Source: a virus. From it: a DNA stretch of 64,000 nt. Position 1 is the stretch's first letter; every line of letters begins with the position of its first letter. The stretch is taken from IMG/VR virus record IMGVR_UViG_3300047557_001498, positions 32,001 to 96,000 of that record; one strand, 5' to 3'. Shown here in pieces: positions 9,114-28,310 of this stretch. The notes beneath the pieces are model-generated. The model searched no databases. It saw nothing but the letters and a program-made list of their open reading frames with translations, and was not told the DNA's origin. The position numbers were made by a program, and so were the translations under genes.

Positions 9114-9122
9114 TAACACACC

Positions 9123-9749
9123 TTAAATAATTTTAGAATAAAATTCGTTTTGTTTTTCTTGTTTTTCTATGGTCTTGAAATGCAAAAGTGAAAACTCTTG
9201 TTCTTCCGGAAATGCAGAATATCTTTCAAATCCTTCCAACCTTTCGTGTACTTTATTTTTCCAATTTATATTTTCACTATTTCTATAAATTCTAGTTTGA
9301 TAATCCGGCCAATTTATTCTATCCATATCATCAAGTTTCCATCCCCATTTTTTTATATGTTCATCGGTTATGCCCTCTACAATATTCCACCTTGGTACTA
9401 ATATCATTTCAACATTTTTGTTATCATTCAATATTAGATGTAGATTATCAATTAAAAATTCAGATGGAACTTCATCTGCATCTATATTAAAAATCCATTC
9501 TTTTGAACAATGTGATTTCAAATTATTTTTAAAATCAGAGAAATTATCATTTAGTGGAAATTTTAAATAAATTAGTTTTGAGAACTTATCAATATATTCC
9601 GAAACAACATCTTCTACTTCTGATGTTAGTTTTTCAGAATCGGCCTGAATGACTACCTCATCATCATTTGATATATGTTTTAGCAAATATCCCAATAAAA
9701 GATTTAATTCTTCTGCTTCGTTGCATACTGTTATTGTGTATGAAATCAT
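9123..9749 (-). CDS. Glycosyltransferase family 2
   Basis: ISYTITVCNE, WIFNIDADE, WPDYQTRIY, VHE. Confidence 0.85.
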   Translation of the reverse strand: MISYTITVCNEAEELNLLLGYLLKHISNDDEVVIQADSEKLTSEVEDVVSEYIDKFSKLIYLKFPLNDNFSDFKNNLKSHCSKEWIFNIDADEVPSEFLIDNLHLILNDNKNVEMILVPRWNIVEGITDEHIKKWGWKLDDMDRINWPDYQTRIYRNSENINWKNKVHERLEGFERYSAFPEEQEFSLLHFKTIEKQEKQNEFYSKII

Positions 9750-11044: not shown

Positions 11045-11051
11045 GTTTACC

Positions 11052-12476: not shown

Positions 12477-12485
12477 GTGAAACCT

Positions 12486-13871
12486 TTATATGTTAAAAAA
12501 CTTTTGTGTTGTAGTTGATGAAACACCGTTCATGTTAATAAGCATTTTACGGTATGGTTTGAATTTGTAACCCATTTGTTCCAATGAAGAATTAAACAAA
12601 TCTTCCGAGTAATCATCTTTATTTCTTTTACCGTTTGAAACTATTGTTTGCATATCACGAACAAAGTTATTAAGTTTATTCATATCTCTTGTTAATCGTA
12701 TCAATCTCAATCTTCGTCTGTTATATTCTTCTTCATCTTGTTCTAATCTTTGAATATCCAATATAAGACTTTTTAATGAATTTTCCAAATCATTTATATC
12801 ATAAGATAAAACTAATTCAGGAAATTCTGTTCCTTTGAACAAATCAATATATGTTTTATCATAAATTGGAATAGTCATCAAGTTCTTTTCTATTTGAGCA
12901 TATTCAAATCTTGGTGTAATGAACATTCCGAAGAACGGCACTTTTGTATTTGTTGTTGATATACTAAATCTACAACCACATAAAAAGTCCATCATACTTT
13001 CCATTGTATATGTTCCTGCAAGTATCATGGGTTTATGGTTATCGAAAACTTTGAATACAGTTGGATCCAAATCAAAGTCTGGAAGAAATGTATCACTAAA
13101 AGTTTTACGAGAAACATTCGAGTGTTCCGCCAATATCTTTACATGATTGAAATAATTTTCGGGTGAATATGTGTTTCCAATGTGAACCAATTTCTTACCA
13201 GACAAGTCTCTCAGTCCCATCTTACCCATTGTTTCTACTATTGGTTTGAAGTTTCCATGGCCTTTAAATTTTGCATAGTAAGCACATTCTGAAATGTATG
13301 GTAATTCTTTTTTATCTAACCATGATTTTTCAATCCACTTGTCATAGATACTCATGTCAATATAACCACCGACTTGAAAAGTATAGTTGGAAGTTCCTCT
13401 CATTCCAATATATTCTTTCAATGCATCCACAAAGAACGGTGTGTATGTCAAATAGTAATCACTATATTTTATGAATGCCGGAACACAAATTGTATTGAAA
13501 TGCATGCCTTCATATGGATATATCTCATGGTCAAAGAATGCAGTTATAGTATTCAACTGACAATACATCTTTGCCAATTCAATCAGTCTTTCTTTATGTT
13601 CTGGTTTTCTTTTTTGAATACCATCAACATCATAGATAAATTTGTTGAGATTCAAAACAACAATATCGTATTGTTCCAACTTATTTTTCAATTTAGTTAT
13701 TTCCATTTCGGAAATATCTAAACAGTTCTGATATTCAGATTTGAAATTGTTTGTTTCGCTTGGGTTAAAATAAAAAGTATCAACACTATCAAGTGATGAT
13801 ATATTTTTGGTAAAGGTATGTATACCCCTATAAACCGAAAGGTCAATTATTGCCAACTGAGCTATTTTCAC
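12486..13871 (-). CDS. T4 DNA alpha-glucosyltransferase-like protein
   Basis: Collinear similarity to T4 AGT recalled by eye: GIHTF~GVTKF, DIVVLN~DILIIN, DHE~HDH, FKGH~WKGF, YTMESMM~YINSEML, RFEYAQIE..TIPIY~SLEYTHLE..TIPVF, YDINDLE~FDENDME. GTG start with AGGTG RBS. Confidence 0.65.
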   Translation of the reverse strand: MKIAQLAIIDLSVYRGIHTFTKNISSLDSVDTFYFNPSETNNFKSEYQNCLDISEMEITKLKNKLEQYDIVVLNLNKFIYDVDGIQKRKPEHKERLIELAKMYCQLNTITAFFDHEIYPYEGMHFNTICVPAFIKYSDYYLTYTPFFVDALKEYIGMRGTSNYTFQVGGYIDMSIYDKWIEKSWLDKKELPYISECAYYAKFKGHGNFKPIVETMGKMGLRDLSGKKLVHIGNTYSPENYFNHVKILAEHSNVSRKTFSDTFLPDFDLDPTVFKVFDNHKPMILAGTYTMESMMDFLCGCRFSISTTNTKVPFFGMFITPRFEYAQIEKNLMTIPIYDKTYIDLFKGTEFPELVLSYDINDLENSLKSLILDIQRLEQDEEEYNRRRLRLIRLTRDMNKLNNFVRDMQTIVSNGKRNKDDYSEDLFNSSLEQMGYKFKPYRKMLINMNGVSSTTTQKFFNI

Positions 13872-13926
13872 GAAACACCTAATTAAATTATCTATAATAA
13901 ATATCAAGTAAATTTACAAAATCGAA

Positions 13927-14652
13927 TCAACTTAAATAAAAATTTAGTGCATAATGGTCTTCGATTTCATTCAAATTATGTCCATGAAAATCGGTATCTT
14001 TTCTAATATACCCTTTATCGCTTCTTCTTTTATCGGCTCTACCTCTATTTTTTTTATCTTGCCATTCATCAAATGTTTTACAAAAATAATGATTTAACTG
14101 TGCGGTATCATAGTTTCCATTTTTATTAAATGGTCCAGTAAATTTTTTATGTTCGGTATTTACTATTGAAATATTGATTGGATTGTGTATATCCATTCTT
14201 ACTCTTTTATCCAATTTAACAATACATTTTATATGAATATTTATGTCAGATTGTCTTCTGGTAAATCTATTTAAAACAGAATAGTCTCCTTCAAATGATA
14301 GTCCACTATCACCAAACAATGCCCAATTTATACCTATTGACTCATAATCTGTATAATCATTTATGAAATTTTTTACGTTTGAATGTTTTTTTAAAACCAA
14401 AAATTCATCAACATCAAAAAATGCAACCCAATCGTATTTATCATAAAAATTTTGTATGAAACGGTTATATGCAGCAACTTGCATATCATCGCCGTCAGCG
14501 GGTATTTTGTATAAATTATCCATTTCAAGATGACATCGCCAATCATTTTCATAAATGAAAATATCATCAAATCCCAATTTGAAATTGTAATTTACCCATT
14601 CTTCTATGTAATTATCTTCATTTTTAGCAATACATACTAATGCAATCTTCAC
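13927..14652 (-). CDS. Glycosyltransferase family 2/92-like
   Basis: KIALVCIAKNEDNYIEEWVNY, WVAFFDVDEFL, LNHYFCKT. Confidence 0.85.
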   Translation of the reverse strand: MKIALVCIAKNEDNYIEEWVNYNFKLGFDDIFIYENDWRCHLEMDNLYKIPADGDDMQVAAYNRFIQNFYDKYDWVAFFDVDEFLVLKKHSNVKNFINDYTDYESIGINWALFGDSGLSFEGDYSVLNRFTRRQSDINIHIKCIVKLDKRVRMDIHNPINISIVNTEHKKFTGPFNKNGNYDTAQLNHYFCKTFDEWQDKKNRGRADKRRSDKGYIRKDTDFHGHNLNEIEDHYALNFYLS

Positions 14653-14667
14653 TATATTTCTCCAGAA

Positions 14668-15579
14668 TTAAAACGGCAATATATTTCTTTTATCATTAGC
14701 ACATAGTTCTTCTTTGTCATTAAACTCACAGTATTTACAATTTGAATAATCACGACCAGCTTCTGCTGGTTGTATAACATCTAAACGATATTCACCTTCT
14801 TCCGTAAAGTTGTGTGTGATAAATTCTGCAATTTCTTTTTTGATATTGTTCTGTGAAACTTTGCCATTAGATGGCTCAAATCTTTGAACCCTTTGTTTCA
14901 TTGCTTCGTATTCAGCATCTTCAATTATTTTACGTCTAAGAATTAAATACTCAATATGTATTTCTTCTGGACTAATATCATATTGTTTTGCATAATATGT
15001 TTTGTAAAGTAATAACTGTGATGTTTTTATTTTATCTGCCTTTGCCCATTTGTTCCAACCATTTGTGCTAGTTTTGAAATCGTATATGTATATTTCACCG
15101 GTCTTTGTATTACGAATCACTAAATCAAGAAATCCAACTAATTTTACTGTTGGGTGAGTTTCAAGTGGAACTATATTTATCGGAACTTCTATACCAACTA
15201 ATTCATAATCTTTCTTTTGGAAAAAGTCTGCACGATGTGCCTTAAACCAATTAAGAATTTGAACACCATCAGAATAATATTCTTTCAATTCTCTATCAGT
15301 TGAAAAGTGTTCATTATTGTTTTCTGTTAGCAATTTCTTATATTGTTCGCGAATTCCTGATTGTAACATTTCATTTACATCAAGTTTATTTGCCTCAACA
15401 ATAGATTTCTCATAGATATTTTTTACATATTCTTGCAATACTTCATGCATTACCGTTCCGAAAAGAGCAGCAGTTGATGGACGGTAACTATAATGTTTAT
15501 CAATGTAATTTAGTTTCCATCTGTGAGGACAGACTTTCCACATTTGATACTGTGAGAAAGATATTTTCCGATTGGACAT
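14668..15579 (-). CDS. PD-(D/E)XK exonuclease (Cas4/RecB-like)
   Basis: ISFSQ..W..CP, FGTVMHE, GFLDLV, YDFKTS, QLLLY, C-terminal CKYCEF...C. Confidence 0.85.
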   Translation of the reverse strand: MSNRKISFSQYQMWKVCPHRWKLNYIDKHYSYRPSTAALFGTVMHEVLQEYVKNIYEKSIVEANKLDVNEMLQSGIREQYKKLLTENNNEHFSTDRELKEYYSDGVQILNWFKAHRADFFQKKDYELVGIEVPINIVPLETHPTVKLVGFLDLVIRNTKTGEIYIYDFKTSTNGWNKWAKADKIKTSQLLLYKTYYAKQYDISPEEIHIEYLILRRKIIEDAEYEAMKQRVQRFEPSNGKVSQNNIKKEIAEFITHNFTEEGEYRLDVIQPAEAGRDYSNCKYCEFNDKEELCANDKRNILPF

Positions 15580-15965
15580 TATTTACCCCACTTGCCAGAC
15601 TGAACAAGTTGTGCAATAATACCATACACTGAAATATCTTTGAATGTATCATCAAGACTTTCGCCAACCGCATCTTGTGATCCAAACATAATCATTTGTT
15701 TGTAACGATTTATTTTATCATTGATACGGAAGAAAAGACCTTGTAAAGAAAGTTTACGGTCTTGTTCTTTTTCAAGTGTGCTACCCATAGATATATTATC
15801 TGGACCATAATTACTTTGTTTTGCACAAAACAATTCATATTGAGTTTGTTGAATACGTTTAAATTCAGCAGTCATAATTGGAAACTTTTCTTCCATTTGT
15901 CTAACAACATCTGATTGTTTTACACCCAAATCTCTTTCTGATATAGACATTTTTATATTCCTCAT
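15579..15965 (-). CDS. Nucleotide modification associated domain 1 (Nmad1/DUF1599-like)
   Basis: KQSNYGPDNI, RINDKINR, ESLDDTFKDISVYGII. Confidence 0.75.
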   Translation of the reverse strand: MRNIKMSISERDLGVKQSDVVRQMEEKFPIMTAEFKRIQQTQYELFCAKQSNYGPDNISMGSTLEKEQDRKLSLQGLFFRINDKINRYKQMIMFGSQDAVGESLDDTFKDISVYGIIAQLVQSGKWGK

Positions 15966-16414
15966 TTTATGGTTTTTAATTGTTTCTCAAATTTTTTAAC
16001 ATCATCTTCTTTTGTTCCGTACATTTTTAGTATTTCAATCAGTTCATCTTGATTTTCTTTTTTTAAGAAAACGATATATGGGTATACTTCATTTCTTCCT
16101 AATTCAAAATGTTTACAGAATATATCAACAAACTCCGGCTCTATCTCAACACGAGTTTTTGATTTAATGTATTTTAAGAATATTGATTGTTTCGGGAGAA
16201 CATCGAGTAAAAGTTTATAGTAATCCCTTGAAGTTAAATCACCATTTGAATATTTTTGAAATTCATTTATCGCTTCAACGAATTGAGACTCCATTGAAAA
16301 GAAACGAGCAATCATATAATTGCTCCAAGATTTTTTATCTTCTTCTGTAAGTTCTTCCCATTTTGTTTTACGGAAAGTTATACCTTTGATGTGATCAAAT
16401 AAACTTTTACCCAT
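15962..16414 (-). CDS. Clamp loader small subunit (gp62-like)
   Basis: SLFDHIKGI, YMIARFFSM, FLKYIK; close to the clamp loader large subunit. Confidence 0.7.
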   Translation of the reverse strand: MGKSLFDHIKGITFRKTKWEELTEEDKKSWSNYMIARFFSMESQFVEAINEFQKYSNGDLTSRDYYKLLLDVLPKQSIFLKYIKSKTRVEIEPEFVDIFCKHFELGRNEVYPYIVFLKKENQDELIEILKMYGTKEDDVKKFEKQLKTIK

Positions 16415-16421
16415 TATATCC

Positions 16422-16691
16422 TCAATCGTTTAACTGTTGTCTTTTTGTTGGCATAAATTCTTCATTGATATTTCCACATTCCAAACAAGCATATGTTGGT
16501 ATTGGAATTATTGCTTCTTGTCCGGTTGGTGAAAGAAGTGCAGATAGTTTCTTAAAAAATGTAACTTCATGGAAAAATTTATTTCCACACTTTGAACATT
16601 CAATATCAGTTGCCTGGTTAATATCAACCGAAACTTGTTGCGGTTGTTGTGGTCTTTGTCCACCACCGTTAATATCATATACGCTCATCAT
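16422..16691 (-). CDS. Zinc-ribbon protein
   Basis: CSKCG ... CLECG. Confidence 0.7.
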   Translation of the reverse strand: MMSVYDINGGGQRPQQPQQVSVDINQATDIECSKCGNKFFHEVTFFKKLSALLSPTGQEAIIPIPTYACLECGNINEEFMPTKRQQLND

Positions 16692-17629
16692 TACCTCCTT
16701 TGGTCAATTTCCATAATAATTTGAATAAACATAGCCATGGCATTTATTTCATGGTCTACAACAAAACTGTCTTTATACTGTGCTTCAGCAATAATTAAAA
16801 TAATTGTAGATACGAAACCATTAGCGTATGTATCAACATTATCATAAAGATAACGAAACATTTGATTAAAGTCTCTAACATGATTGTCAGCAAGTAACTG
16901 ACGAATACCATCGAACTTTTCTTTTTTACTTTTACTTGATTTCAAAACATCAATAATAGATGAAAGATAATTGTGTTCTACCAAAGTTGTTTCATCCAAT
17001 TTCAAAACACCACCGATAACACATCGTTGAGTTGTGTTGATTACACGGCGAATATCTGGATAAGATTGATTGATAATTGTTACAAGATTATCTTTGTCAT
17101 ACTTTACATTTTCACCATCAAGAATTTTTACAAGATGTTGTGCAACTTCTTTCTTTGACGGTGGAACTATATTAAATATCTGACAACGAGACTGAATGGG
17201 ATCAATAATCTTATCTACATAATTACAAGTCAAAATAAAACGAGTTGTCTTACTGAATGTTTCTATTACATTACGAAGTGCCGCCTGGGCATTTGGTGTC
17301 ATGTAATCACACTCGTCAAGTATAATTATTTTTAGTCCACCGAAACCAATCGAAGAAGCAAACTGTTTAATTTTATCACGAACAGTATCTACCGAGTTTT
17401 CATCAGAAGCATTGATATAAATGTAATTATCTTTTGCAATAGTATTTGCAACAATCTTAGCAAGTGTGGTTTTACCACTACCGGCATCACCATAAAGAAG
17501 TAAGTGTGGAACATCACTGGTGTCAATATATTGTTGAAAGGTTGCCTTTACAGTATCGTTACCAACATAAGTGTCAAGTGTCTGTGGACGATACTTTTCA
17601 TTCCAAATTGTGTGTGAGGGGTTAAACAT
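16691..17629 (-). CDS. Clamp loader AAA+ subunit (gp44/RFC-like)
   Basis: WNEKYRP, GDAGSGKTT, INASDE, ILDECD, SRC. Confidence 0.95.
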   Translation of the reverse strand: MFNPSHTIWNEKYRPQTLDTYVGNDTVKATFQQYIDTSDVPHLLLYGDAGSGKTTLAKIVANTIAKDNYIYINASDENSVDTVRDKIKQFASSIGFGGLKIIILDECDYMTPNAQAALRNVIETFSKTTRFILTCNYVDKIIDPIQSRCQIFNIVPPSKKEVAQHLVKILDGENVKYDKDNLVTIINQSYPDIRRVINTTQRCVIGGVLKLDETTLVEHNYLSSIIDVLKSSKSKKEKFDGIRQLLADNHVRDFNQMFRYLYDNVDTYANGFVSTIILIIAEAQYKDSFVVDHEINAMAMFIQIIMEIDQRR

Positions 17630-17660
17630 AACATACCTTAATGTTTGATAAATTCATATT

Positions 17661-17691
17661 GTAATATACTAAATTTATTGATAAGATCAAA
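17661..17691 (-). promoter_or_regulatory. Bacteroidota-type promoter TTTG-N19-TATATTAC
   Basis: Upstream of the clamp loader. Confidence 0.6.
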
Positions 17692-17692
17692 A

Positions 17693-18757
17693 TTATTTTT
17701 GAAAAACAAAGATTGGCTCTCTTTTATATCCTGCACCCATGACGGCAGATAGTATCAGTTGTAGGGTATCGGTATGAGTAAAGCCAACTAAGTTGGCATA
17801 TTTTATAGTCATTTCTTCGAGGTCTTTATACTTTGGTGTGTTGGCTATATTGATTAACATATATCCACCTTTTTTCAATCCATGATAACAGTTCCGAAAT
17901 GTTCCTTGTAAGAAACCAGAACCCCAATCTTCTCTTGTTGGAAACTTATTGTATGACTGTGTTTCTTCATCTGCATATTTCTCTGTATCGAAATATGGCG
18001 GTGAAGTAAAACATAAGTCTAATGTTTCCGCCGCTGGGAGATAGTCCTCTGAACCCATCATGTTTAATTGAATATCCTTACCAAGATACTCAAAGTCATC
18101 ACGAAGTTTACAAAGTCCTTCAAATGTTTTTGTAGATGGTTCTGTTCCGATATAAGTTTTAATGTATGGTGAAGCAAGAGCACCAACCAATCTTCCACCC
18201 CAACCACAAGACATATCCCACATTACACCATCACCACCAAATTTTTTATAGATGACACCGGCTGCTGTTGGTCTGAAATTGGAAACACCTTGAACACCAG
18301 AATATATTTTTAATGATTGACGCAAACGGTTTTCTTGAAAAGAACCACCCCAATGTTTTGATAACCATTTCAAACATTTACGAATAGTCATCTTGAATGT
18401 TTGGTCATTCAAAAAATTATCCATAGGAGACATTTTAGAATTGCCACACTTTACTTCCATTGCATGAGGAAAGTATGACCACGCCAATCGAAGTCCGTTC
18501 ATGGTTTGAATTATATCACCATCTTTGAAAATAGAATCATAATCAAACTGTTGAAGTTTTCTCATGTGTTCATGTTTTTCTTGTTCGGTGATTTTCATAT
18601 ACGGATAACCATGTTTGCGGTAATACTGAAAGATACAGTCTATCGTATCATCCAATTCTCTTTTACCAGCAAAGTATTCACCCGTTTCTTTCCACAGACG
18701 AACTTCTAGCGGATCAACATCAAAAAATTTACCTAAACTTTCACTATCTACTTTCAT
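17693..18757 (-). CDS. Putative DNA amino-methyltransferase (N4C/N6A), paralog 3
   Basis: SNFRP, DMSCGWGGRL (motif I), FTSPPYFDTEKY (motif IV); start MKVDS at 18757. Confidence 0.8.
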   Translation of the reverse strand: MKVDSESLGKFFDVDPLEVRLWKETGEYFAGKRELDDTIDCIFQYYRKHGYPYMKITEQEKHEHMRKLQQFDYDSIFKDGDIIQTMNGLRLAWSYFPHAMEVKCGNSKMSPMDNFLNDQTFKMTIRKCLKWLSKHWGGSFQENRLRQSLKIYSGVQGVSNFRPTAAGVIYKKFGGDGVMWDMSCGWGGRLVGALASPYIKTYIGTEPSTKTFEGLCKLRDDFEYLGKDIQLNMMGSEDYLPAAETLDLCFTSPPYFDTEKYADEETQSYNKFPTREDWGSGFLQGTFRNCYHGLKKGGYMLINIANTPKYKDLEEMTIKYANLVGFTHTDTLQLILSAVMGAGYKREPIFVFQK

Positions 18758-18758
18758 G

Positions 18759-20381
18759 TTATGGTTTATAGAATACAAATATCGGCTCGTGTTTGAACCA
18801 CTCACCATTGAATAAAACTTTATTTGCTAGTCTTTCTGGATCAGAATTACCAATCATCTTTGTCATCAACATACACATTTTTCCTTTATATTCCATTCCA
18901 AGTGATTTCAAAATTTTTATGGAATCTTCTTCAAGGTTTATTGTTTTAGTTGCTGAAACTTTTATGTTTGCAATATTCCAACAAAGGTATCTATCGTTCT
19001 TCAAATATCTAACAGCAGTTTCAAGTGTTGGGCGAAGAAAGTTATCTCTCCAATCTGCATATTCTCCGTGTGATTTGTATGATTGAGTTTCATCGTCAGA
19101 ATACATTTCACGATTGAAATATGGCGGTGATGTGAAAACAAAATCTAACTTACCTTCATACTTTTGGAATTTAGGATTGTGTTGAATCAATTCTGAACCA
19201 TCTTGAAAAACATCATACGTGTGATCCTCTTTTACATCGAAAAATCTTGATGAAAGTGAACTACCTTTTTCACCAATGGATTTCAAATAAAAATCAGCAA
19301 GATATTCATAACGAGTTATTCCCAATTCTGGAATAGAATTGTCTGTATTAGGATCAGTTCCAACATAATGTATTGGACGACTTACAGACATTGCACCGAG
19401 TATTCTACCACCCCACCCTGCACTTGGATCATATACCGTCACCATTTCACTTGCCGGAATATGTTTCGTAAAATGTTCATACAAAAACTTTGCAGTCATT
19501 GGCGGAAAATTTACAGCAGGTTGTGAGAATGAAATACGGAATATCTGAAATGCTTGTGGAAATAACTTTGCACTCTTTTCATATACTCTAACCAAGAAAA
19601 CGTTTACTCTTGGTTCTTCACCGTCTTTTTTTATCATAAAATTATCAGACAATTCATCTATATCACCCAAATAAAAAATCATACTTTCATCAAGTATTCC
19701 ATCCTTAACAAACTCACGAATTTGATCGGCTTTGATAGTTAAATACTTTGTATATTTTTTATTGTAAGTTTCAAGTGTACACGATATTTTTGAAATACGC
19801 AAACCTTGTCCATCAAATCTACCATCACCATTCTTAAATGCTAAGAAGAAATCTCGAAGTGTTTCTCCCTCACGGAAGTATGGGTTCTTGATTTGATTTG
19901 ATGAAATGGATTTACTATACAAATACATTGAATCGTTATACAGAGTTCTACGCATAACATGATGAAATGTCTCTTTCATTTCATCGGTGAAGAAATCGTA
20001 AATAGATCGTGAAGTTTCACCGTTTGTTCCACTGGCAATTTTTGTTTTCAACATTGTTGGGAAGAATTGATTAGCTGCAGAACCGTTTTTAGAAAAATTG
20101 GCAATGACGCCGATGATGTCAGCGTCATTACCTTTTTCTGGATTATGAAAAATCTTTGAAGAATTGAATTGACGGAGCTTTGAAAATGATTGTATGATTT
20201 CTTCTTCACTTCTGCCAACAAGTGGCGGTTTACCATTTTCATCCCAATCTTTCAAAAACCTCATTCGTAAATCTTCTACCCATTCGGAAAACTTTTTATC
20301 GTCATAAGTTACCAACTCACCATATGTTATATTACATGGCCAGGACAGAACATTACCTTTTTCATAAAAATATTTTTGCAT
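18759..20381 (-). CDS. Putative DNA amino-methyltransferase, paralog 2
   Basis: VNFPP, DPSAGWGGRIL, FTSPPYFNREMY. Confidence 0.8.
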   Translation of the reverse strand: MQKYFYEKGNVLSWPCNITYGELVTYDDKKFSEWVEDLRMRFLKDWDENGKPPLVGRSEEEIIQSFSKLRQFNSSKIFHNPEKGNDADIIGVIANFSKNGSAANQFFPTMLKTKIASGTNGETSRSIYDFFTDEMKETFHHVMRRTLYNDSMYLYSKSISSNQIKNPYFREGETLRDFFLAFKNGDGRFDGQGLRISKISCTLETYNKKYTKYLTIKADQIREFVKDGILDESMIFYLGDIDELSDNFMIKKDGEEPRVNVFLVRVYEKSAKLFPQAFQIFRISFSQPAVNFPPMTAKFLYEHFTKHIPASEMVTVYDPSAGWGGRILGAMSVSRPIHYVGTDPNTDNSIPELGITRYEYLADFYLKSIGEKGSSLSSRFFDVKEDHTYDVFQDGSELIQHNPKFQKYEGKLDFVFTSPPYFNREMYSDDETQSYKSHGEYADWRDNFLRPTLETAVRYLKNDRYLCWNIANIKVSATKTINLEEDSIKILKSLGMEYKGKMCMLMTKMIGNSDPERLANKVLFNGEWFKHEPIFVFYKP

Positions 20382-21100
20382 CAGTTGTTATCCAATTTTA
20401 CTAAATAATATTTGGCTTCAAAATCATCAATATCAAATTCAACTTTTGCCAAACCTTCGGAAGAAACTTTAAGAGTTCCACCATTAAGGTCTTTATTAGC
20501 AGCAAGAATACCGTTAAAGTATTTTGCAGAGAAACTAATCGGATCAATATCACCACTTGCATTACAATCAATATCAATAGAGATACGGTTTGAATTTGTA
20601 TTTGAATAACCAAGAACAATTTGATATTTGTTCAATTTATCATTCTTCAATACCGTGAACTTTTCAATATCAGATAGTGCAGATTTTGCCTTAATGAATT
20701 TGTCAATAAATTCTTTTGTAATCGTAATATCCAATTCAAAAGGTGGCAACTCTTTTAGGTCTGGTGCAGGTGGAATTACTGCAAGGTCAGCCAACATATA
20801 ATTTACCGTAGTTGATTTGTCATCAATAGTTAATGAGAACGCCTTATCACCTGCACCGTTTACTTGAAAGTTTACTGTATTACCAAGAACTCCCAATAAA
20901 CTCACAAGCAGGTCAGTATTGTAAACTCCAAATTTCCAAGAATCTCCTTGAAAACTTTTTAACTTAACTTCACCAACAACACACTTATCATCGGAAATAA
21001 AACGAGTAGATAAACCACCGTTCATATTCCAAGCAACCGATTGAATCAACTTACCCAAGTGATACTTGCTGATAAAGTTGAGCAACTTTGATTTTTCCAT
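20381..21100 (-). CDS. Sliding clamp (gp45/PCNA-like)
   Basis: 239 aa; FGVYNTDLLVSLL, YMLADLAVI, LKVSSEGLAKVEF...YYLV; lies between PolB and the clamp loader. Confidence 0.75.
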   Translation of the reverse strand: MEKSKLLNFISKYHLGKLIQSVAWNMNGGLSTRFISDDKCVVGEVKLKSFQGDSWKFGVYNTDLLVSLLGVLGNTVNFQVNGAGDKAFSLTIDDKSTTVNYMLADLAVIPPAPDLKELPPFELDITITKEFIDKFIKAKSALSDIEKFTVLKNDKLNKYQIVLGYSNTNSNRISIDIDCNASGDIDPISFSAKYFNGILAANKDLNGGTLKVSSEGLAKVEFDIDDFEAKYYLVKLDNN

Positions 21101-21135
21101 AACAAAAATCCTTAATGATTAGAAAATAATGTATA

Positions 21136-21166
21136 CAAATATACGAAAAAATTTTGAATTATCAAA
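21136..21166 (-). promoter_or_regulatory. Bacteroidota sigma-type promoter TTTG-N19-TATATTTG
   Basis: Exact match to the -33 TTTG / -7 TAnnTTTG consensus, upstream of the clamp. Confidence 0.75.
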
Positions 21167-22076
21167 ACGAAAAAAACTTTTGTGCAACTTTTTTGTTCTC
21201 CGTTGGGAAATCCCACTTCATTGCATCATAAAAGTTTCTTAACTTGCCATCCAATTCAGATACAAATAATTCGTTGGCATCAAAATGTTCTTTGATAAAC
21301 TCAATAATTTCATCTGGATCGGAATCTCCACGAAAAGCCAACTCCTCCAAACCATATTTGTTGGCTTTTAAATAAGCAATCTTAACCTTATCACCATTTT
21401 TGATTGGAGGAAACTTTGGAGGACAACCAAATACTTTTAATAACTTATTGTAATTTATAGCAGCTTTAATATGTGATGGTGTTCCTTTTCCGAATTTACC
21501 AAGAACATCATCCGTAACCATGCTTGCATATTTTTTAATGTCTTTAATAGAAGATGTCTTTGCAACCTCTGAATACAAAACTGTATTCAGATTTCTTTTG
21601 AAAGATAAAATATTTTCATCTATGTCCTTTTTATTTTTGTCTTTGAGAATATCAACTATAACATTTTTCATAAGTTTCTGAAACGATTTTGGGAATGATG
21701 AGCGCACAATATCCAATCCTTTAACTTCTAACTTATCAACCGATACTCCATTATCTGAAATAATCCATAGTGCATATCTCTTTTTCTTTTGCCAGAAACC
21801 CGTTCTACCAATCATTTCTTGTTTAATTTCTAAACGATGTTTGTCTGTATTGAATATCTTTTTAGCAAAAACATCATAGAATTGATTAACATAATTTTGA
21901 ACTTCAGTTGCAATTTCGTAAATTTTAGGTGTCATAGAATCAATATCATTGGTATCTATTTCAGGAAATCTATTCTTAACGAGAGGCAGACAAGAAACGA
22001 AAACAGAATCCGTGTCTACATATTGAACATGATCTATTTCAACATTTTCATTTTTTATTATTTTTTTTATTTTCAT
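21162..22076 (-). CDS. Family B DNA polymerase, C-terminal subunit (motif C, thumb)
   Basis: YVDTDSVF, KKRYAL, KGLDIVRS, C-terminal QKFFSF; preceded by a basic MKIKKIIKNENVE leader. Confidence 0.9.
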   Translation of the reverse strand: MKIKKIIKNENVEIDHVQYVDTDSVFVSCLPLVKNRFPEIDTNDIDSMTPKIYEIATEVQNYVNQFYDVFAKKIFNTDKHRLEIKQEMIGRTGFWQKKKRYALWIISDNGVSVDKLEVKGLDIVRSSFPKSFQKLMKNVIVDILKDKNKKDIDENILSFKRNLNTVLYSEVAKTSSIKDIKKYASMVTDDVLGKFGKGTPSHIKAAINYNKLLKVFGCPPKFPPIKNGDKVKIAYLKANKYGLEELAFRGDSDPDEIIEFIKEHFDANELFVSELDGKLRNFYDAMKWDFPTENKKVAQKFFSF

Positions 22077-22092
22077 ATCGAATCAATATATT

Positions 22093-22740
22093 TTACAAAT
22101 TAAGAAAACTTTTATACGAACATGATATATTTGCATTGTCTAAATAGTGTTTAAATTCTACATCCGAATCTCTTTCTTCTGGTGTGAAATACCACGGTAT
22201 ATGTTTTGCCCTATAATCAACTAAACTAACACCACCGATGAATGCATCTTTTATATTGTAAACAGCAAATGTAGTATCTATCAATACATTTATCAAACAA
22301 CCTTCAAGTTCTGTTGATTGCGTTTGTCTAGATTTTTCATACGATTGTATGTGATCATAATACGGCGAATCAATCGGAACATCGTGAAAGTCTAATGTTA
22401 AACCAACCTTACCATAATCTGGAAATTTTTCAAGAATAGATATTGATTTTGTCAAACAATCTGTTGGTGTGATTGATAAATCTAAATCAGGATCTGTTAC
22501 AACATAGTAATCTGATTCTAATGAATTAACCAATCCCGAAATCCATGGTGCATGATGGCCTAAATTTTCAGTTCTAACAACTCTAATATCCGTTTCACTA
22601 TACCATTCCAAAAGAGGTTCATATGTACTATCATTATCTAAAATTATTATTTCACCGACCATATCAAACTTTGAAATGTATTCTATCATTTTTCTTGGCC
22701 ATGTCAATAAGTTTCTATTATTTATTATTACTGGAATCAT
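22093..22740 (-). CDS. GT2-like glycosyltransferase inserted between the two PolB halves
   Basis: IPVIINNRN, IIILDNDSTY, NLGH, YVVTDPDLD (DxD). Confidence 0.7.
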   Translation of the reverse strand: MIPVIINNRNLLTWPRKMIEYISKFDMVGEIIILDNDSTYEPLLEWYSETDIRVVRTENLGHHAPWISGLVNSLESDYYVVTDPDLDLSITPTDCLTKSISILEKFPDYGKVGLTLDFHDVPIDSPYYDHIQSYEKSRQTQSTELEGCLINVLIDTTFAVYNIKDAFIGGVSLVDYRAKHIPWYFTPEERDSDVEFKHYLDNANISCSYKSFLNL

Positions 22741-22755
22741 TTTTTTTCCAAAAAA

Positions 22756-24522
22756 TTATACAATATCATCTGTTTCTAAAAGTTCAGACGCCTTAACTTT
22801 TGTCAATATACCATTTCTCATTATGGATATAAAATTATTTGAATAGTATGTTCGAGTTGAATTGTCTTCCATTTTAACAATTACCTCATATCCAAGCTCT
22901 TTATTGTATTTCATGTTTATAGCAGCTTCTGTTTTTTTGATAACGGTTTGACCGGATAGAGTAACCGCTTCAGCATTATCAATATCATAAAAACGAAATG
23001 CCGGTAAACCCAAAATACCATACATAGAATTAAGAAGAATTTTTTGAACAAGTTGTCTTTTCTTGTAAAACTCATACTTTTCTGTATCACCCGCATTACC
23101 CCACTTCTTCATTTCATTTTTATACTCAACCCTCTTATCAAACCAATCAGAAAGAATTGCTGGAATAAGTCCTGTTCTTTCTGAACTATACATTACCCCA
23201 TTTGATGCAACGGTGTATTTGTATTTATCCAAAAATGCCTTTAACTTTTCTTTCGATACCGTTTCACCACCAACAATATATGCATCTACATTACCACGAA
23301 GAAATTCTTCTGCATTCCAATTCTCAATCTTAGCAATTTTTGTTTCCGGTGAAATGTTTAGTGTCATAATGATTGACGGATAAAGTGATGTTAAGTCCAA
23401 GTCATACATCCACTCATATCTACCAGGAACGGGATCCTTAACAAATGCTCCAATAAATCCCTTCTCACCACTATCTTTCAATTCTTGCATTTTTTCTTGT
23501 CTATCTGCAGGTTTGTTCGGAGCAACAACACCACCAATATGCTTCAGATATGTCAGCATCGCACCTTCAAGATACTTTGATGAATAAACAAAATCTTCAT
23601 AAGGAACATGACCGACATGAGCAATACCTCTAACTAAATCGATATATTGTAATTTCTTATCCAAATCAATTACCAACTCAACGTCAGTAATGTTGTAATC
23701 AATAAATGTATCAATATCGTTTTCCATCAAATCATCAAGATTACCCTCATACTCAACCTTACCACGACCAAGTTCTGTTATTGAAACATAATCTAATGAA
23801 TAAGATGGTAGCTCCTTATATGAGAATTTTTTGTAAACAGTCATATAATCTAACACAGATGTCCCACCTATTGTATATCGGTTTCTATATGGAGAATAAA
23901 ACATTTCACCGATAACAGAAAGATTGTTTGCTTGTTTTTTACCGAGAACACGTTTGATGCGATTATACAAATATGGAATATCGAATGCATCACAATTCCA
24001 ACCCGTCATAACATGGGGTTGAATTTCTTGAATAGCATCTATAAATTTTAATAACAAAGTTTTTTCATCGTAACATGGAATTACTGTTTTGTTATGGGTA
24101 GTTTTTGAATCTAATTTTTTTTTCTTGTCCAATACAAGAATTGTGTAATGGTCTGATGCAGAATCATGGTAAGCGATAGATGTTACTTCATTGTTACCTT
24201 GTGTTGGATCTGGAACACCTGTAATCATTTCAACCTCAATATCAAATGTCATAGTAACTATTCCATTTGACGGCATATCTGAATCGCCGTACATATCAAC
24301 GAGAATACGAGTAGTCTCTGCAATATCAGATTCAAACAAGTCTGGATCATTCTTAACAAAGTTTGTAACCTTTGATAGTTTATCACCATATAGAGAAATA
24401 TATTTACCGTTAGGATCTTTTTTGTAAGCATACGGTTTATATTCAAAATGTAATAAACCTTTGGTATCATCCCAAACCCACGCTTCTCTTGTATTTGTTT
24501 TTACGAAAATGTTTTGATACAT
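22756..24522 (-). CDS. Family B DNA polymerase, N-terminal subunit (3'-5' exonuclease, motifs A and B)
   Basis: FDIEV, GWNCDAFDIPY, YNITDV, DLTSLYPS, KILLNSMYG; no motif C; ends in a 44-aa Hint-like tail. Start MYQN at 24522. Confidence 0.9.
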   Translation of the reverse strand: MYQNIFVKTNTREAWVWDDTKGLLHFEYKPYAYKKDPNGKYISLYGDKLSKVTNFVKNDPDLFESDIAETTRILVDMYGDSDMPSNGIVTMTFDIEVEMITGVPDPTQGNNEVTSIAYHDSASDHYTILVLDKKKKLDSKTTHNKTVIPCYDEKTLLLKFIDAIQEIQPHVMTGWNCDAFDIPYLYNRIKRVLGKKQANNLSVIGEMFYSPYRNRYTIGGTSVLDYMTVYKKFSYKELPSYSLDYVSITELGRGKVEYEGNLDDLMENDIDTFIDYNITDVELVIDLDKKLQYIDLVRGIAHVGHVPYEDFVYSSKYLEGAMLTYLKHIGGVVAPNKPADRQEKMQELKDSGEKGFIGAFVKDPVPGRYEWMYDLDLTSLYPSIIMTLNISPETKIAKIENWNAEEFLRGNVDAYIVGGETVSKEKLKAFLDKYKYTVASNGVMYSSERTGLIPAILSDWFDKRVEYKNEMKKWGNAGDTEKYEFYKKRQLVQKILLNSMYGILGLPAFRFYDIDNAEAVTLSGQTVIKKTEAAINMKYNKELGYEVIVKMEDNSTRTYYSNNFISIMRNGILTKVKASELLETDDIV

Positions 24523-24523
24523 A

Positions 24524-25750
24524 TTAAACTCTCTTAAACATCCATATTGGTTCACAAAACTTTTTATCTCTATTCTTCTCGGCAAATTCTACACTATCAT
24601 CAAGGAAATGTCCGTCTCTTGTTGCAGTTCCTGCACCGGCAGAGTTTGGTCTTTTTGACATTTCCATTCCGATACAACCGATATATTCCATTCCATTCTC
24701 TACAAGGAAATCACTCATTGGGTTTGTTATCTCTAACCATTGACGACCGGTAGACCATGCAGAGTTTGTGTAAACATCTGCAATGTTTATTGCCATAATA
24801 CCACCAACTCTCAATGATGGGATGATATTACCCAATGTTTTATGTAGAAAGTTTTTATTCCATTCATCAATACCTTTATATCGAACCCAACTTTGTGTGT
24901 CTGATTGTGAATACTTCTCAACATTAAAATATGGTGGTGATGTAAACACCAAGTCAAAGTGTTCCGGATATTGTGTGAAATCGAAATCTTCTGCTGGTGA
25001 TGTATAAAAATTCGTTTTCTTTTTACTTTCAAAGAAACCTAAATTCTTTTCATAGAACTGTTTTTGTTCTTCATATATCGGATGATTTTCTACTCTTGGA
25101 TCCAAACCAACATAATGTTCGGTACAAGATGCTGCATAAAAACCAGCAAGTCTGTCACCCCATCCCATAGAGAAATCCAATACATTCTTTACACCCAACA
25201 TTTCATATAGAACTTTAGCAACATTTGGTTTAAACTGTGAACAAATGTATTTACGAAGACCTAACATGGTTCTTAATTCCGATTTACCAAGTGTTTCCAT
25301 TTTGAGTGAATACATGGAACCCATTAGTGATTTCATAAACTTATGGTTAGACCATGTTCTGGCAGGACCTGGTGAAACTGATGCATCAACTTCCCAACGA
25401 TTCTTTTGTTGAAAATAATTTGATGCATCGTTACCAGTATTCAAACGACTGAAATATAATTGTTTTCCCTCATATGTCAAAGCATATTTTGGTTCAGACG
25501 CCTTTCTTGGAAACCACTCACCTTCGGTTAGCAATTCATTCCAACGAATACCTTTGAGTTTTAGAAACTCTCGTTGTGCATCTTCAATAGTAATTTCAGC
25601 GTAAGGTAAAGGGTATGTCATTGCTATTTCAGCAAGACGATCCTTTACATATTCTTTATCGAAGTTTTCTTTTATGTATGTTATTTGTTCGGCAGTTATT
25701 GTTAGATACGGTTCCATACCGTAAAATTGTTGGAAGTAATCTTGTTGCAC
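24524..25750 (-). CDS. Putative DNA amino-methyltransferase, paralog 1
   Basis: SQFKP, DFSMGWGDRL, FTSPPYFNVEKY. Confidence 0.8.
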   Translation of the reverse strand: MQQDYFQQFYGMEPYLTITAEQITYIKENFDKEYVKDRLAEIAMTYPLPYAEITIEDAQREFLKLKGIRWNELLTEGEWFPRKASEPKYALTYEGKQLYFSRLNTGNDASNYFQQKNRWEVDASVSPGPARTWSNHKFMKSLMGSMYSLKMETLGKSELRTMLGLRKYICSQFKPNVAKVLYEMLGVKNVLDFSMGWGDRLAGFYAASCTEHYVGLDPRVENHPIYEEQKQFYEKNLGFFESKKKTNFYTSPAEDFDFTQYPEHFDLVFTSPPYFNVEKYSQSDTQSWVRYKGIDEWNKNFLHKTLGNIIPSLRVGGIMAINIADVYTNSAWSTGRQWLEITNPMSDFLVENGMEYIGCIGMEMSKRPNSAGAGTATRDGHFLDDSVEFAEKNRDKKFCEPIWMFKRV

Positions 25751-25763
25751 AAAACACCATTTG

Positions 25764-26054
25764 TTAATCTATTGAATAAAAACTACCTATTCTATCTCTC
25801 ATATCATATACAACTCTAAACTTTCTTACAAATTCATCTTGTTTGTATATTTTTGTATCATTATTATCAATAACAACGTAATCGCCCGGTAAAATTTCTT
25901 TTCCAGATTTAAATGTGAACTTGTACAACGATTCACTTACCAATGAAATAACACCGTCCCATTTATCAACAGCTTCAAGTGCAGATTCTTTTGTGCCATC
26001 AAAATGATATGCAGAGAATTTAGAGTGTAAAGGTTCGACCATCATAAAATTCAT
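25764..26054 (-). CDS. Hypothetical phage protein
   Basis: ORF track (FDGT...PGDYVV...IYKQDEF). Confidence 0.6.
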   Translation of the reverse strand: MNFMMVEPLHSKFSAYHFDGTKESALEAVDKWDGVISLVSESLYKFTFKSGKEILPGDYVVIDNNDTKIYKQDEFVRKFRVVYDMRDRIGSFYSID

Positions 26055-26059
26055 AACAA

Positions 26060-26344
26060 TTATTTCCTCATAAGTTTTTTCTTAAAATCTTTCAACCAAT
26101 CTGGATCGTTTTCAGTATCATCAATGTCATAATATGTTTTACCATCTTTTGCCATTGTCCAATTATCAGAGATTTCATCCTCATTTGGCATTAGAATTTC
26201 TTCCAAAGAATCCAAATCACCGTGAGTTGCTGCAATATGATCCTTTATATGTTTTCTGGTCTTTCTGTGAGCATGGACTTTATCATATTTTTCAGAAGAA
26301 CCTGTATTGCCTATTATAGGATTTTTTCTATATGAACGGCTCAT
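26060..26344 (-). CDS. Hypothetical protein with basic N-terminus
   Basis: MSRSYRKNP...DKVHAHRKTRK; GAGG RBS. Confidence 0.6.
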   Translation of the reverse strand: MSRSYRKNPIIGNTGSSEKYDKVHAHRKTRKHIKDHIAATHGDLDSLEEILMPNEDEISDNWTMAKDGKTYYDIDDTENDPDWLKDFKKKLMRK

Positions 26345-26361
26345 AACATAACCTCATAAAA

Positions 26362-27009
26362 TTAAAGTTGAATATCTTTCCAATTTCCGTTTGCAATAGT
26401 TTTTGTTGCCCATTTACCCATGTTGTTTGCAACTTCATAATAGTTGTAAACACCTTTTTGTTCTAACATACTATCTTCAAACACAAATGGTCTACCCTTT
26501 ACCTTTGTCATAAATTCTCCACCCTTACCCATGTTTCTATCATTAAAAGATTGTGTGTTTCTGTATCCAGGAAAAGAATTAGGACACTTATTTGTTCCAA
26601 TCAAAACAGATCCTTTGCCACCTTTTGGTATAAACAGTATAGAATCTTGCATATACTTTTCACCTAGTCTGACTAAATCTGATTTTAATGTTCCCTTATC
26701 TTTCAAATCAACAACAAAGTAAACATCCTCTTTTACTTCTTTTGCATCTTTTGTTCCAAAGTTTTCGATATAAGCACCATCAACTCTAGTTACACCATAA
26801 CCAAGAACTTCAAGATTTGCATACAACTGTCTATTTCTTTTTTTATTATCATCCAATGAATATTCTGCATCATCTGGACTACCACAACCTTCTTTTGAAC
26901 GGAATGCCGTTATTGTACCACAATCATGTTCATCCATGTGTTTTGTTAAACGAGAAAGACCACTCTCATTTACATTCTTGTTTGGTAATAAATCTTTTAA
27001 CTTTGCCAT
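26362..27009 (-). CDS. S-adenosylmethionine lyase (T3 SAMase-like)
   Basis: ITAFRS...NKKRNRQL...DGAYIE...KEDVYFV...LGEKYMQDSILF parallels T3 SAMase VSAFRS...NMSRHRHM...TGCYRE...EEKTVRV...NEWEQDCVLV as recalled. Confidence 0.7.
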   Translation of the reverse strand: MAKLKDLLPNKNVNESGLSRLTKHMDEHDCGTITAFRSKEGCGSPDDAEYSLDDNKKRNRQLYANLEVLGYGVTRVDGAYIENFGTKDAKEVKEDVYFVVDLKDKGTLKSDLVRLGEKYMQDSILFIPKGGKGSVLIGTNKCPNSFPGYRNTQSFNDRNMGKGGEFMTKVKGRPFVFEDSMLEQKGVYNYYEVANNMGKWATKTIANGNWKDIQL

Positions 27010-27038
27010 AATTTCTCTCGGTTATGAAAAACATTTAC

Positions 27039-27046
27039 TATAAATA
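27039..27046 (-). promoter_or_regulatory. Putative late promoter TATTTATA
   Basis: 30 nt upstream of the SAM lyase start. Confidence 0.6.
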
Positions 27047-27052
27047 TACAAA

Positions 27053-27559
27053 TCATTTTTTATCTGTTGAACCAAATCCACCATCGCCTCTATTACTATC
27101 AGACAGTTCTCGAACTTCTTCAAAATGAACGGTTGGGTATGGAATGATTATCAACTGAGCAATTTTATCGCCAACTTTTGGAACATTGTTTATCCATTCT
27201 TCATCAAATGGAAAACTTGGATATTCAAATCTAGCAAGAATTTCACCACGATAATTTGAATCAATAACTCCAACTGAATTTTTTAATGATACACCCGATA
27301 GTGCCTTTGTTATTGAGCTTCTTGGAAAAAGAAGTCCAACATAACCACTTGGAATTTCTACGGCAATACCTGTTCCATATTCCATGAATGTTTTATCCTT
27401 TCTCAATGATGTTGCAGTTAAATCCAAACCAGCATCACCATCTTGTGCATATCGTGGTGTTACTGCTTCAGGTACTAATTTACGAAATTTTACAGTTAAA
27501 TCCAAATTATTTTTGTAATTTAATTTGTAATTGGGAAACCATTTGCCAACCAAACTCAT
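27053..27559 (-). CDS. dut: dUTPase (trimeric)
   Basis: AGLDL, PRSS, GVIDSNYRGE, IAQLII, RGDGGFGST. Confidence 0.95.
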   Translation of the reverse strand: MSLVGKWFPNYKLNYKNNLDLTVKFRKLVPEAVTPRYAQDGDAGLDLTATSLRKDKTFMEYGTGIAVEIPSGYVGLLFPRSSITKALSGVSLKNSVGVIDSNYRGEILARFEYPSFPFDEEWINNVPKVGDKIAQLIIIPYPTVHFEEVRELSDSNRGDGGFGSTDKK

Positions 27560-27560
27560 T

Positions 27561-28310
27561 TTAACCTCCTACATTCCAAAATAATGCATCATCCGATGCG
27601 TGTTCTCTAATAAATGACCAAACTTTTGAATCGTAATAATCCGAAGATGGAAACGGTGGTTTCTCTGCGGGTTTACATTTTTGTGTGAATTTATACTTTG
27701 ATACGAAGATTTCTGCCCTACCTCTCTCTCTATCGGTAGTATTGTGACCAACTCTAACACCATATATTTTTGCATCTGGCCATGCCTTCTGTAATCCCCT
27801 TGACAGAACACCTGAACTTATACATGACCAAACTTCTTTTGGTTGTATTGGAAGTGAACTCGCAATTCTAGCAACTTCATCAATAACAACAGGATGGTCA
27901 AGACCAAATGGTAATAATTGTGAACCGGGAGTTTCTACTGCATATTTTTTAGCAACGTGTTGAATGTGTGTAAGAAATCCCATAGGAACTTCTATAATGT
28001 TTGCACCAATAGAAATTGCTTCTTTGGTTAGTGGTAGATGTTTTCCTTTCGGAATGATAACTGTTGCCTTCAATCCCAAATCTCTACAAGCATAAGCAAG
28101 TGCAACTTGAGCATAGCCAACTCTCGGTGAAGCATAAACCCATTCCCTTACATGAGATTGTGATTGAAGATAACGATATAAAAATCTTCTCTTTGTTCCA
28201 CCAGGAAGTAAGTCATCACGAACTACCCAAATGTTTTCATGTTTTTCAATAACAACATCTGGTAAAGTTACCGTAACATCTTTCGTTGGATATTGAAAGA
28301 AGTCTGACAT
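27561..28310 (-). CDS. Fold-type II PLP-dependent enzyme of the kind found in phage DNA-hypermodification loci
   Basis: VVRDDLLPGGTKRR (PLP lysine), YASPRVGYAQ, SSGVLSRGL, PFPSSDYYDSKVW, LFWNVG. Confidence 0.75.
   Translation of the reverse strand: MSDFFQYPTKDVTVTLPDVVIEKHENIWVVRDDLLPGGTKRRFLYRYLQSQSHVREWVYASPRVGYAQVALAYACRDLGLKATVIIPKGKHLPLTKEAISIGANIIEVPMGFLTHIQHVAKKYAVETPGSQLLPFGLDHPVVIDEVARIASSLPIQPKEVWSCISSGVLSRGLQKAWPDAKIYGVRVGHNTTDRERGRAEIFVSKYKFTQKCKPAEKPPFPSSDYYDSKVWSFIREHASDDALFWNVGG

Follow-up and report, generated by a model that had tools for sequence, protein, structure and literature searches.

The stretch of DNA analysed here (the window, 64,000 nucleotides, bases 32001-96000 of the 115-kb IMG/VR virus contig IMGVR_UViG_3300047557_001498, which is ~65% complete) carries the replication module of an uncultured T4-like phage with a G+C content of ~32%. 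Within this module, a 461-residue glycosyltransferase with the fold of the T4 alpha-glucosyltransferase (AGT) ends in a short peptide resembling the C-terminus of the phage's own DNA polymerase (PolB), suggesting that the enzyme probably travels on the sliding clamp, modifying DNA at the replication fork. The first-pass annotation of the window had proposed more broadly that methylation, glycosylation and a pyridoxal phosphate (PLP) step are recruited to the clamp through FF motifs on PolB, the AGT-like protein, three methyltransferases and a PLP enzyme. All the peptides that it quoted exist, on the minus strand and in the genes to which they had been assigned, and its interpretation as a whole is partly supported. 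The polymerase and the glycosyltransferase comprise the following features.

12486..13871, minus strand: GT-B glycosyltransferase with a T4 AGT-like fold, 461 amino acids (aa) (AlphaFold2 model and structure matches)
12504..12542, minus strand: Ser/Thr-rich hypervariable linker of the glycosyltransferase, residues 444-456 (entropy, pLDDT)
12489..12503, minus strand: glycosyltransferase tail KFFNI-COOH, residues 457-461, putative clamp-docking peptide (conservation)
22756..24522, minus strand: PolB N-terminal half, exonuclease and start of the polymerase domain (Pfam DNA_pol_B_exo1, DNA_pol_B)
21162..22076, minus strand: PolB C-terminal half, gp43-like, 304 aa (Pfam DNA_pol_B)
21165..21188, minus strand: PolB tail VAQKFFSF, putative clamp-interaction peptide (position and conservation)

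The first-pass reading that the PolB C-terminal half ends in VAQKFFSF and the AGT-like protein in TTQKFFNI (12489-12512) is correct. Residues 17-291 of the PolB C-terminal half align with residues 617-892 of the 903-residue RB69 gp43, and the last 13 PolB residues therefore sit opposite the RB69 clamp-binding peptide, the 11-residue C-terminal peptide of gp43 that was crystallised on the RB69 clamp (PMC2988020). The end is kept as A-[QEK]-K-F-F-[SNT]-F-COOH in 66 PolB homologues with 47-94% identity, and the residues directly upstream diverge. The polymerase of the nearest isolate, Microcystis phage Mel-JY01 (61% identity in the PolB C-terminal half), ends in SKFFNFK; beyond Mel-JY01, the PolB relatives belong to more distant T4-like phages. 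The T4 gp43 protein ends in SLDFLFG, whereas the PolB tail here is basic and aromatic instead. From its position and conservation, A-x-KFF-x-F-COOH is very likely the clamp-interaction peptide of this lineage.

For the glycosyltransferase, the "AGT-like" label given in the first-pass annotation is right at the fold level, and the gene does exist, its start being GTG 13871, as in public gene calls, and not 13907. The protein has no match to a Pfam-A family (hmmscan, E 0.01), including the AGT family PF11440 (named in PMC13216743), and none to a PHROG family. Its AlphaFold2 model (pLDDT 80.7, pTM 0.84) adopts a GT-B fold, for which the nine best Foldseek matches in the PDB are all T4 alpha-glucosyltransferase chains, with E-values from 1e-11 to 8e-10. 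The VIA-align superposition on AGT gives Z 25.1-25.7 and a root mean square deviation of 3.8 over 359-366 residues, with the next GT-B structure at Z 20. Residues 1-412 of the model cover AGT residues 1-400, and the identity in the structural alignments is 13-15%.

The remaining residues, 413-461 (~49), form an extension past AGT, in which residues 448-461 have a pLDDT of less than 50. In a set of 39 distinct full-length sequences, no other stretch of 13 residues varies as much as residues 444-456 (mean entropy 0.59, compared with 0.17 for the whole protein), and the KFFNI end directly behind them shows no change in any of the 39. The relatives comprise 33 close homologues (77-100% identity), one at 60%, which ends in SKFFSES, and six remote ones (20-28%), which stop short of the tail; Mel-JY01 has no homologue of this protein. 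An invariant end, a variable and disordered linker and absence from the remote homologues are together, at the level of sequence, typical of a short linear motif that was acquired, and the tail likely docks on the clamp. We also considered the tail as a duplication scar, which is ruled out by the PolB and glycosyltransferase tail-coding stretches having only 14 nucleotides in common and flanks without similarity.

Two of the remote homologues (P0157 and P0159) end in ...SRKLF and ...EPGLF, recalling bacterial beta-clamp-binding ends such as QLGLF. No genomic context was found in IMG/VR for P0157-P0159, and a scan of metagenomes returned only the glycosyltransferase family of this phage itself.

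The PolB halves (21162-24522) are separated by a 215-aa open reading frame (ORF; 22093-22740) with a faint GT2-like match (E 0.02) and a homologue in 0 of 80 related loci. In most relatives, PolB is a single protein of 838-896 aa, and three loci (L038, L039 and L076) also have a separate ORF for the C-terminal half.

The same type of end recurs on other proteins of related phages. Our comparison set consists of 80 IMG/VR loci around clamp homologues with 51-98% identity to the window clamp, from which, together with this genome, 1,220 ORFs were clustered into 264 families. KFF occurs within the last seven residues in 6-7 of the 264 families, where interior frequencies predict 0.10, and [FY]F-x-hydrophobic stands at the exact C-terminus in five (0.41 expected, P 7e-5), so that C-terminal motifs are enriched 10- to 60-fold. 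Thus, the part of the first-pass proposal that concerns C-terminal tails goes beyond chance; the N-terminal motifs to which it extended clamp recruitment are not enriched.

The carriers include the canonical N6_N4 DNA methyltransferases of the relatives, of which 32 of 40 members have the tail, ending in QNYFQF, NSYFEF, NKFFE, RKFFEWK or DFFDYQK, with many of the tailed genes lying between the PolB and clamp genes (e.g., loci L049-L067). Also in relatives, a D12 (Dam-type) methyltransferase ends in KFFEYKK, an Endonuclease_NS protein in KFFGGF, a protein with a weak GIY-YIG match in EKFFQFN and a GNAT protein in EKFFQF. Almost every carrier that could be identified is a DNA-acting protein, as would be expected of a clamp toolbelt. 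Among the 131 ORFs of the phage itself, the pattern [KR]FF[DNSTEQ][FIVY], which was chosen after seeing the data, has four matches, compared with 0.8 in shuffled sequences, and these are only PolB, the glycosyltransferase and two methyltransferases (MT354 and MT540, described below).

Further proteins have comparable ends. Outside the window, a 234-aa protein with weak, sub-cut-off HNH matches (G000:C1:19362-20066, L108:863-1567) has EKFFDW 15 residues before its acidic C-terminus and may be a further tail-bearing nuclease, and a 220-aa protein without a Pfam or PHROG family (G000:C1:13537-14199, L084:1538-2200) ends in GVFFKF, fitting the polymerase tail pattern. In Mel-JY01, a 639-aa protein with a cytidylyltransferase-like domain (L088:11243-13162) ends in SYFKFK, mirroring that phage's own PolB end KFFNFK. 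A search with T4 gp55 as the query found no homologue in this genome, in Mel-JY01 or in a complete sister-clade genome (G002).

The protein on which these tails would dock, and its loader, are encoded next to PolB.

20381..21100, minus strand: gp45-type sliding clamp, 239 aa (phrog_223 profile, gene order and ESM Atlas neighbour)
16691..17629, minus strand: clamp loader large subunit, gp44-like AAA+ (Pfam AAA, DNA_pol3_delta2)
15962..16414, minus strand: clamp loader small subunit, gp62-like (phrog_225, E 1.4e-10)

The clamp matches the phrog_223 "DNA polymerase processivity factor" profile (E 1.4e-8) over residues 56-185, and a neighbouring cluster in the ESM Atlas carries gp45-slide_C with a score of 0.96. 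The order PolB, clamp, (methyltransferases), gp44-like and gp62-like subunits corresponds to the same neighbourhood in Mel-JY01 and T4.

From the tail motifs, their conservation and enrichment, the fold and the gene order, we infer that the tails bind the clamp, that the glycosyltransferase acts on DNA and that its action is coupled to replication. The PolB end would be the counterpart of the T4/RB69 gp43 tail, inserting into the hydrophobic patch of a gp45-type clamp. The AGT-fold glycosyltransferase would have gained KFFNI-COOH at the end of its extension of ~49 residues, after a flexible, fast-evolving Ser/Thr linker, and could dock through it on clamps loaded at the fork or left behind it. 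In this way the transferase would be kept on nascent DNA by a clamp bound to that DNA, as proposed for T4 alpha-glucosyltransferase. We favour this reading, in which a PolB-type peptide docks an AGT-fold enzyme on the sliding clamp for replication-coupled DNA modification, with moderate confidence. Less certainly, the FF peptides of three methyltransferases with an SPPY motif may work likewise, in the manner of the T4 ligase loop. These enzymes and the PLP enzyme carry their motifs at the N-terminus or internally.

18759..20381, minus strand: MT540, SPPY amino-methyltransferase, 540 aa (Pfam N6_N4_Mtase, 29.6 bits)
19233..19259, minus strand: MT540 internal loop SLSSRFFDV, residues 375-383 (conservation, pLDDT)
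20364..20381, minus strand: MT540 N-terminal MQKYFY (conservation)
17693..18757, minus strand: MT354, SPPY methyltransferase paralogue, 354 aa (Pfam N6_N4_Mtase, 30.4 bits)
18716..18739, minus strand: MT354 N-terminal SLGKFFDV, residues 7-14 (conservation)
24524..25750, minus strand: MT408, SPPY methyltransferase paralogue, 408 aa (Pfam N6_N4_Mtase, 24.5 bits, just below the cut-off)
25028..25045, minus strand: MT408 NLGFFE, at the loop position of the MT540 peptide (conservation)
27561..28310, minus strand: PLP-dependent enzyme (PALP/threonine-dehydratase-like), 249 aa, with N-terminal MSDFFQY at 28290-28310 (Pfam PALP; phrog_7093, E 9e-38)

Against a Pfam cut-off of 26.7 bits for N6_N4_Mtase (PF01555), and with SPPYF and GWGGR invariant in the three proteins and 32 relatives, MT354, MT540 and MT408 are paralogues predicted to be N6/N4 amino methyltransferases, with DNA as the putative substrate. 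The AlphaFold2 model of MT540 (pLDDT 82) has a class I methyltransferase fold dependent on S-adenosylmethionine (SAM). None of the window's own methyltransferases has a C-terminal tail. The gene listed in the first-pass annotation as the methyltransferase at 17693 exists, with its start most likely at ATG 18757, placing its motif at residues 7-14.

Conservation of the FF motifs among homologues, which the first-pass annotation had named as a check, was found for every motif that it listed. The MT540 loop retains FF[DNQ][VT] between variable flanks across 112 homologues; residues 373-380 have a pLDDT below 50, and the FF pair lies at the ordered edge of the loop. MT354 is without this loop, yet has a near-identical peptide at its N-terminus, and its orthologues keep KFF[DN][VI], some reading KFFNI. 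The orthologues of MT408 (49-98% identity) keep [FW]F[ED], those of the PLP enzyme (63-95% identity) keep FF[QED][YF] between variable flanks, and the MT540 N-terminus, a predicted coil with a pLDDT of ~70, is kept as K[YH][FY]YE[KR]S down to 44% identity. A chance origin of the internal MT540 and MT408 motifs was dropped, given this conservation and the low-confidence loop.

Clamp docking by the FF motifs of the three methyltransferases and the PLP enzyme is plausible, for the N-terminal ones on conservation as the sole support, and differs from motif to motif. SLSSRFFDV of MT540 is the strongest among them; for this loop and for the MT354 N-terminus, docking is a tentative proposal, falling a little short of an even chance. 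It is doubtful for the MT408 loop, rather unlikely for the N-terminus of the PLP enzyme and least likely, at a low probability, for the N-terminus of MT540.

In two loci of a clade with a clamp ~54% identical to that of the window (L070:10714-13994 and L073:6013-9296), the MT540-type methyltransferase is tandemly duplicated. The MT540 orthologue of the sister-clade genome G002 has an additional C-terminal WANFYIS.

The glycosyltransferase gene lies within a run of genes for related functions.

13927..14652, minus strand: GT-A glycosyltransferase, Glyco_tranf_2_4/GT92-like, just upstream of the AGT-like gene (Pfam)
7605..12476, minus strand: five glycosyltransferase genes downstream of the 461-aa glycosyltransferase, namely GT2, RgpF-like, GT2 and two GT1/GT4 (Pfam)

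Together with the AGT-fold gene and the GT2_4/GT92-like gene, seven consecutive glycosyltransferase genes thus occupy positions 7605-14652, and a related cluster follows the PD-(D/E)XK nuclease gene in Mel-JY01. The GT-A protein ends in ALNFYLS here and in ALDFFNSH in two related loci (L045 and L046), a weak hint of a clamp tail.

Several findings weigh against a clamp-borne DNA glycosyltransferase. The contig of 115 kb (~65% complete) has no match to Thymidylat_synt, Thy1 (ThyX) or Tet_JBP and no dCMP/dUMP hydroxymethylase, and because neither a hydroxymethylase nor a TET gene was found on it, the term "hypermodification" is unproven. The seven-gene cluster headed by the glycosyltransferase could build a glycan that is not attached to DNA. 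The complete genome G002 has the tail on PolB only and lacks the 461-aa glycosyltransferase. T4 AGT itself ends in ...FDIITK, without a gp43-like tail, and the 461-aa enzyme has its 49-residue extension with one, so that the tail motif does not reproduce the arrangement in T4. The clamp has no Pfam family, phmmer and profile searches against the PDB gave nothing for it, and its hhalign comparison with T4 gp45 is collinear and not significant (E 0.056); its identification draws on the PHROG profile match, the gene order and the Atlas neighbour, which point to a gp45-type clamp. As for the wider set of motifs, FF within the first 14 residues is barely enriched (15 of the 264 families, with 8.1 expected, P 0.02), a four-residue N-terminal motif is not significant (two families, with 0.6 expected), and the MT354 motif lies within a conserved block of 25 residues that corresponds in alignment to the beginning of the domain common to the paralogues and may for this reason be structural.

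On the question of a hydroxymethylase, the sister-clade genome G002, which is without the AGT-fold glycosyltransferase, has a gene ~5 kb upstream of PolB for a 232-aa protein that weakly matches the thymidylate synthase family (25.9 bits; L087:1486-2184). This protein, possibly a hydroxymethylase, has no homologue on the contig analysed here.

The broader version of the first-pass proposal, in which all six enzymes dock through C-terminal, N-terminal and internal FF motifs and methylation, glycosylation and the PLP step form one replication-coupled hypermodification machine, gains from the conservation of every listed motif in the orthologues and from SLx[KR]FFDV standing at different sites in two paralogues (a loop in one and the N-terminus in the other), suggesting a portable module. 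That gp45 can be bound by internal motifs is known from the T4 ligase loop, and in the phage's own proteome [KR]FF[DNSTEQ][FIVY] is confined to PolB, the glycosyltransferase and two methyltransferases. We nevertheless consider this version unlikely, given the lack of N-terminal enrichment, the post hoc definition of the proteome motif, the conserved block around the MT354 motif and the missing modified-base pathway on the contig; the PLP enzyme, moreover, resembles PALP enzymes that act on small molecules (phrog "threonine dehydratase") and has no recognised link to DNA. More far-reaching, and in our view about as improbable, is a portable FF peptide serving as a general clamp label on C-termini, N-termini and loops, which would assemble a toolbelt of the AGT-fold glycosyltransferase, the three amino-methyltransferases, possibly the PLP enzyme and the Dam-type methylases, nucleases and acetyltransferase of the relatives, the phage DNA then containing a glycosylated base made without a recognisable hydroxymethylase.

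The shared tail could also bind another hub of the replisome (the clamp loader, a gp32-like single-strand DNA-binding protein or the helicase) or be a sorting or degradation signal. Its basic and aromatic KFF differs from the acidic hydrophobic T4 tail, and tail similarity and attachment sites are known to vary among T4-related phages (PMC2988020), which would suit such a reading. The PolB tail, however, sits exactly at the position of the RB69 clamp-binding peptide, the tailed methyltransferase genes of the relatives lie between PolB and the clamp, and the well-annotated carriers of the tail are all DNA-acting, so that a different partner appears improbable. More improbable still is the absence of any function, with phenylalanine simply being common in an AT-rich genome, the glycosyltransferase tail having arisen by chance or been left over from recombination, and the FF pairs of the methyltransferases being ordinary core residues. 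The numbers for generic motifs in the phage's own proteome are close to those of shuffled sequences ([KR]FF, 12 vs 9.5; FF[polar][hydrophobic], 10 vs 7.2), and the 14 nucleotides identical in both tail-coding stretches would agree with recombination, but the flanking DNA shows no similarity, KFFNI is invariant beside the most variable segment of the glycosyltransferase, the C-terminal enrichment extends across the 264 families and at least six unrelated enzyme families of the relatives have the same tail. Docking of the AGT-fold glycosyltransferase on the clamp by a polymerase-like peptide is thus the reading that we retain.

All genes between 12.4 and 28.3 kb lie on the minus strand. Their order is thioredoxin, the PALP-family PLP enzyme (249 aa), dUTPase, a SAM-lyase-like protein, two small ORFs, MT408, the PolB N-terminal half, the inserted 215-aa ORF, the PolB C-terminal half and the clamp (239 aa), followed by MT540, MT354, the gp44-like clamp loader, a zinc-ribbon ORF, the gp62-like subunit, an Nmad1-like protein, a PD-(D/E)XK nuclease, the GT-A glycosyltransferase, the 461-aa protein and five more glycosyltransferases. 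The SAM-lyase-like gene (26362-27009; Pfam S-AdoMet_lyase, E 1e-10) is located 0.6 kb from the first of the three SAM-dependent methyltransferase genes. In relatives, by contrast, a gene for SAM synthetase is found close to that for the clamp loader (L050:4873-6027), as it is in the annotation of Mel-JY01. Elsewhere in the window, a gp32-like single-strand DNA-binding protein (40694-41455; phrog_1192, E 2e-16) has the acidic and hydrophobic end ...TFDDLF.

The AGT-fold enzyme carries an explicit candidate for a docking peptide, copied from the phage's own polymerase, and relatives put the same peptide on methyltransferases and nucleases. If the binding is true, this gives a simple sequence rule by which replication-coupled DNA-modifying enzymes could be found in uncultured phages, and it would explain how phage DNA can be shielded from host restriction from the moment of its synthesis. 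The 461-aa family, currently without annotation, would also be marked as a DNA glycosyltransferase whose acceptor base is to be found.

The concept of a clamp toolbelt has been worked out in detail for polymerases, ligase and late transcription factors. To our knowledge, T4 alpha-glucosyltransferase is the only phage DNA-modification enzyme reported to bind the clamp, and its mode of binding is not known. In animals, the DNA-modifying enzyme DNMT1 is recruited to the replication clamp PCNA through a short linear motif, the PCNA-interacting protein (PIP) box. Compared with the phage case, DNMT1 belongs to another domain of life, binds another clamp and uses a motif of another class (Qxx[ILM]xx[FY][FY]), and QKFFSF and QKFFNI do not conform to the canonical PIP box, their aromatic pair standing at positions 3-4 after the glutamine and not at positions 7-8.

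The C-terminal tails of T4 gp43, gp33 and gp55 bind gp45 and are interchangeable, with the gp55 tail placed on a divergent linker (PMC2988020). The tails described here share with them a short hydrophobic peptide at the extreme C-terminus, its occurrence on the polymerase as well as on other clients and a divergent flexible linker. They belong to a different class, being basic and aromatic (K-F-F-x-[FI]), whereas the T4 and RB69 tails are acidic and hydrophobic (SLDFLFG or LFDMFDF). The putative clients also differ, being DNA-modifying enzymes here and transcription factors in the case of gp33 and gp55. An internal counterpart is the T4 ligase, in which a flexible, dispensable loop copying the gp43 tail (GLDFLFD vs SLDFLFG) binds gp45 with a Kd of ~11 uM (PMC6212786). 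Similarly, SLSSRFFDV of MT540 is located in a low-confidence loop missing from the paralogue MT354, but the host protein is a methyltransferase, the loop is shorter and, in the model, the FF pair lies at the ordered loop edge.

Another close known system is T4 alpha-glucosyltransferase, which was reported to bind gp45 (Sommer et al. 2004, as cited in PMC13216743 and PMC6024577), co-purifies with gp45 in a 2026 pull-down in which beta-glucosyltransferase does not (PMC13216743) and is considered to work directly behind the replication fork (PMC13216743, PMC6024577). AGT (PDB IDs 1XV5 and 1Y6F) is the best structural match of the 461-aa glycosyltransferase over the whole length of AGT; the two differ in their low sequence identity, in the missing Pfam match and in the 5-hydroxymethylcytosine pathway, which was not found on this contig. 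The T4-type clamp clients and the interaction of T4 alpha-glucosyltransferase with gp45 are thus already known, and the new element is an AGT-fold glycosyltransferase bearing a polymerase-like tail.

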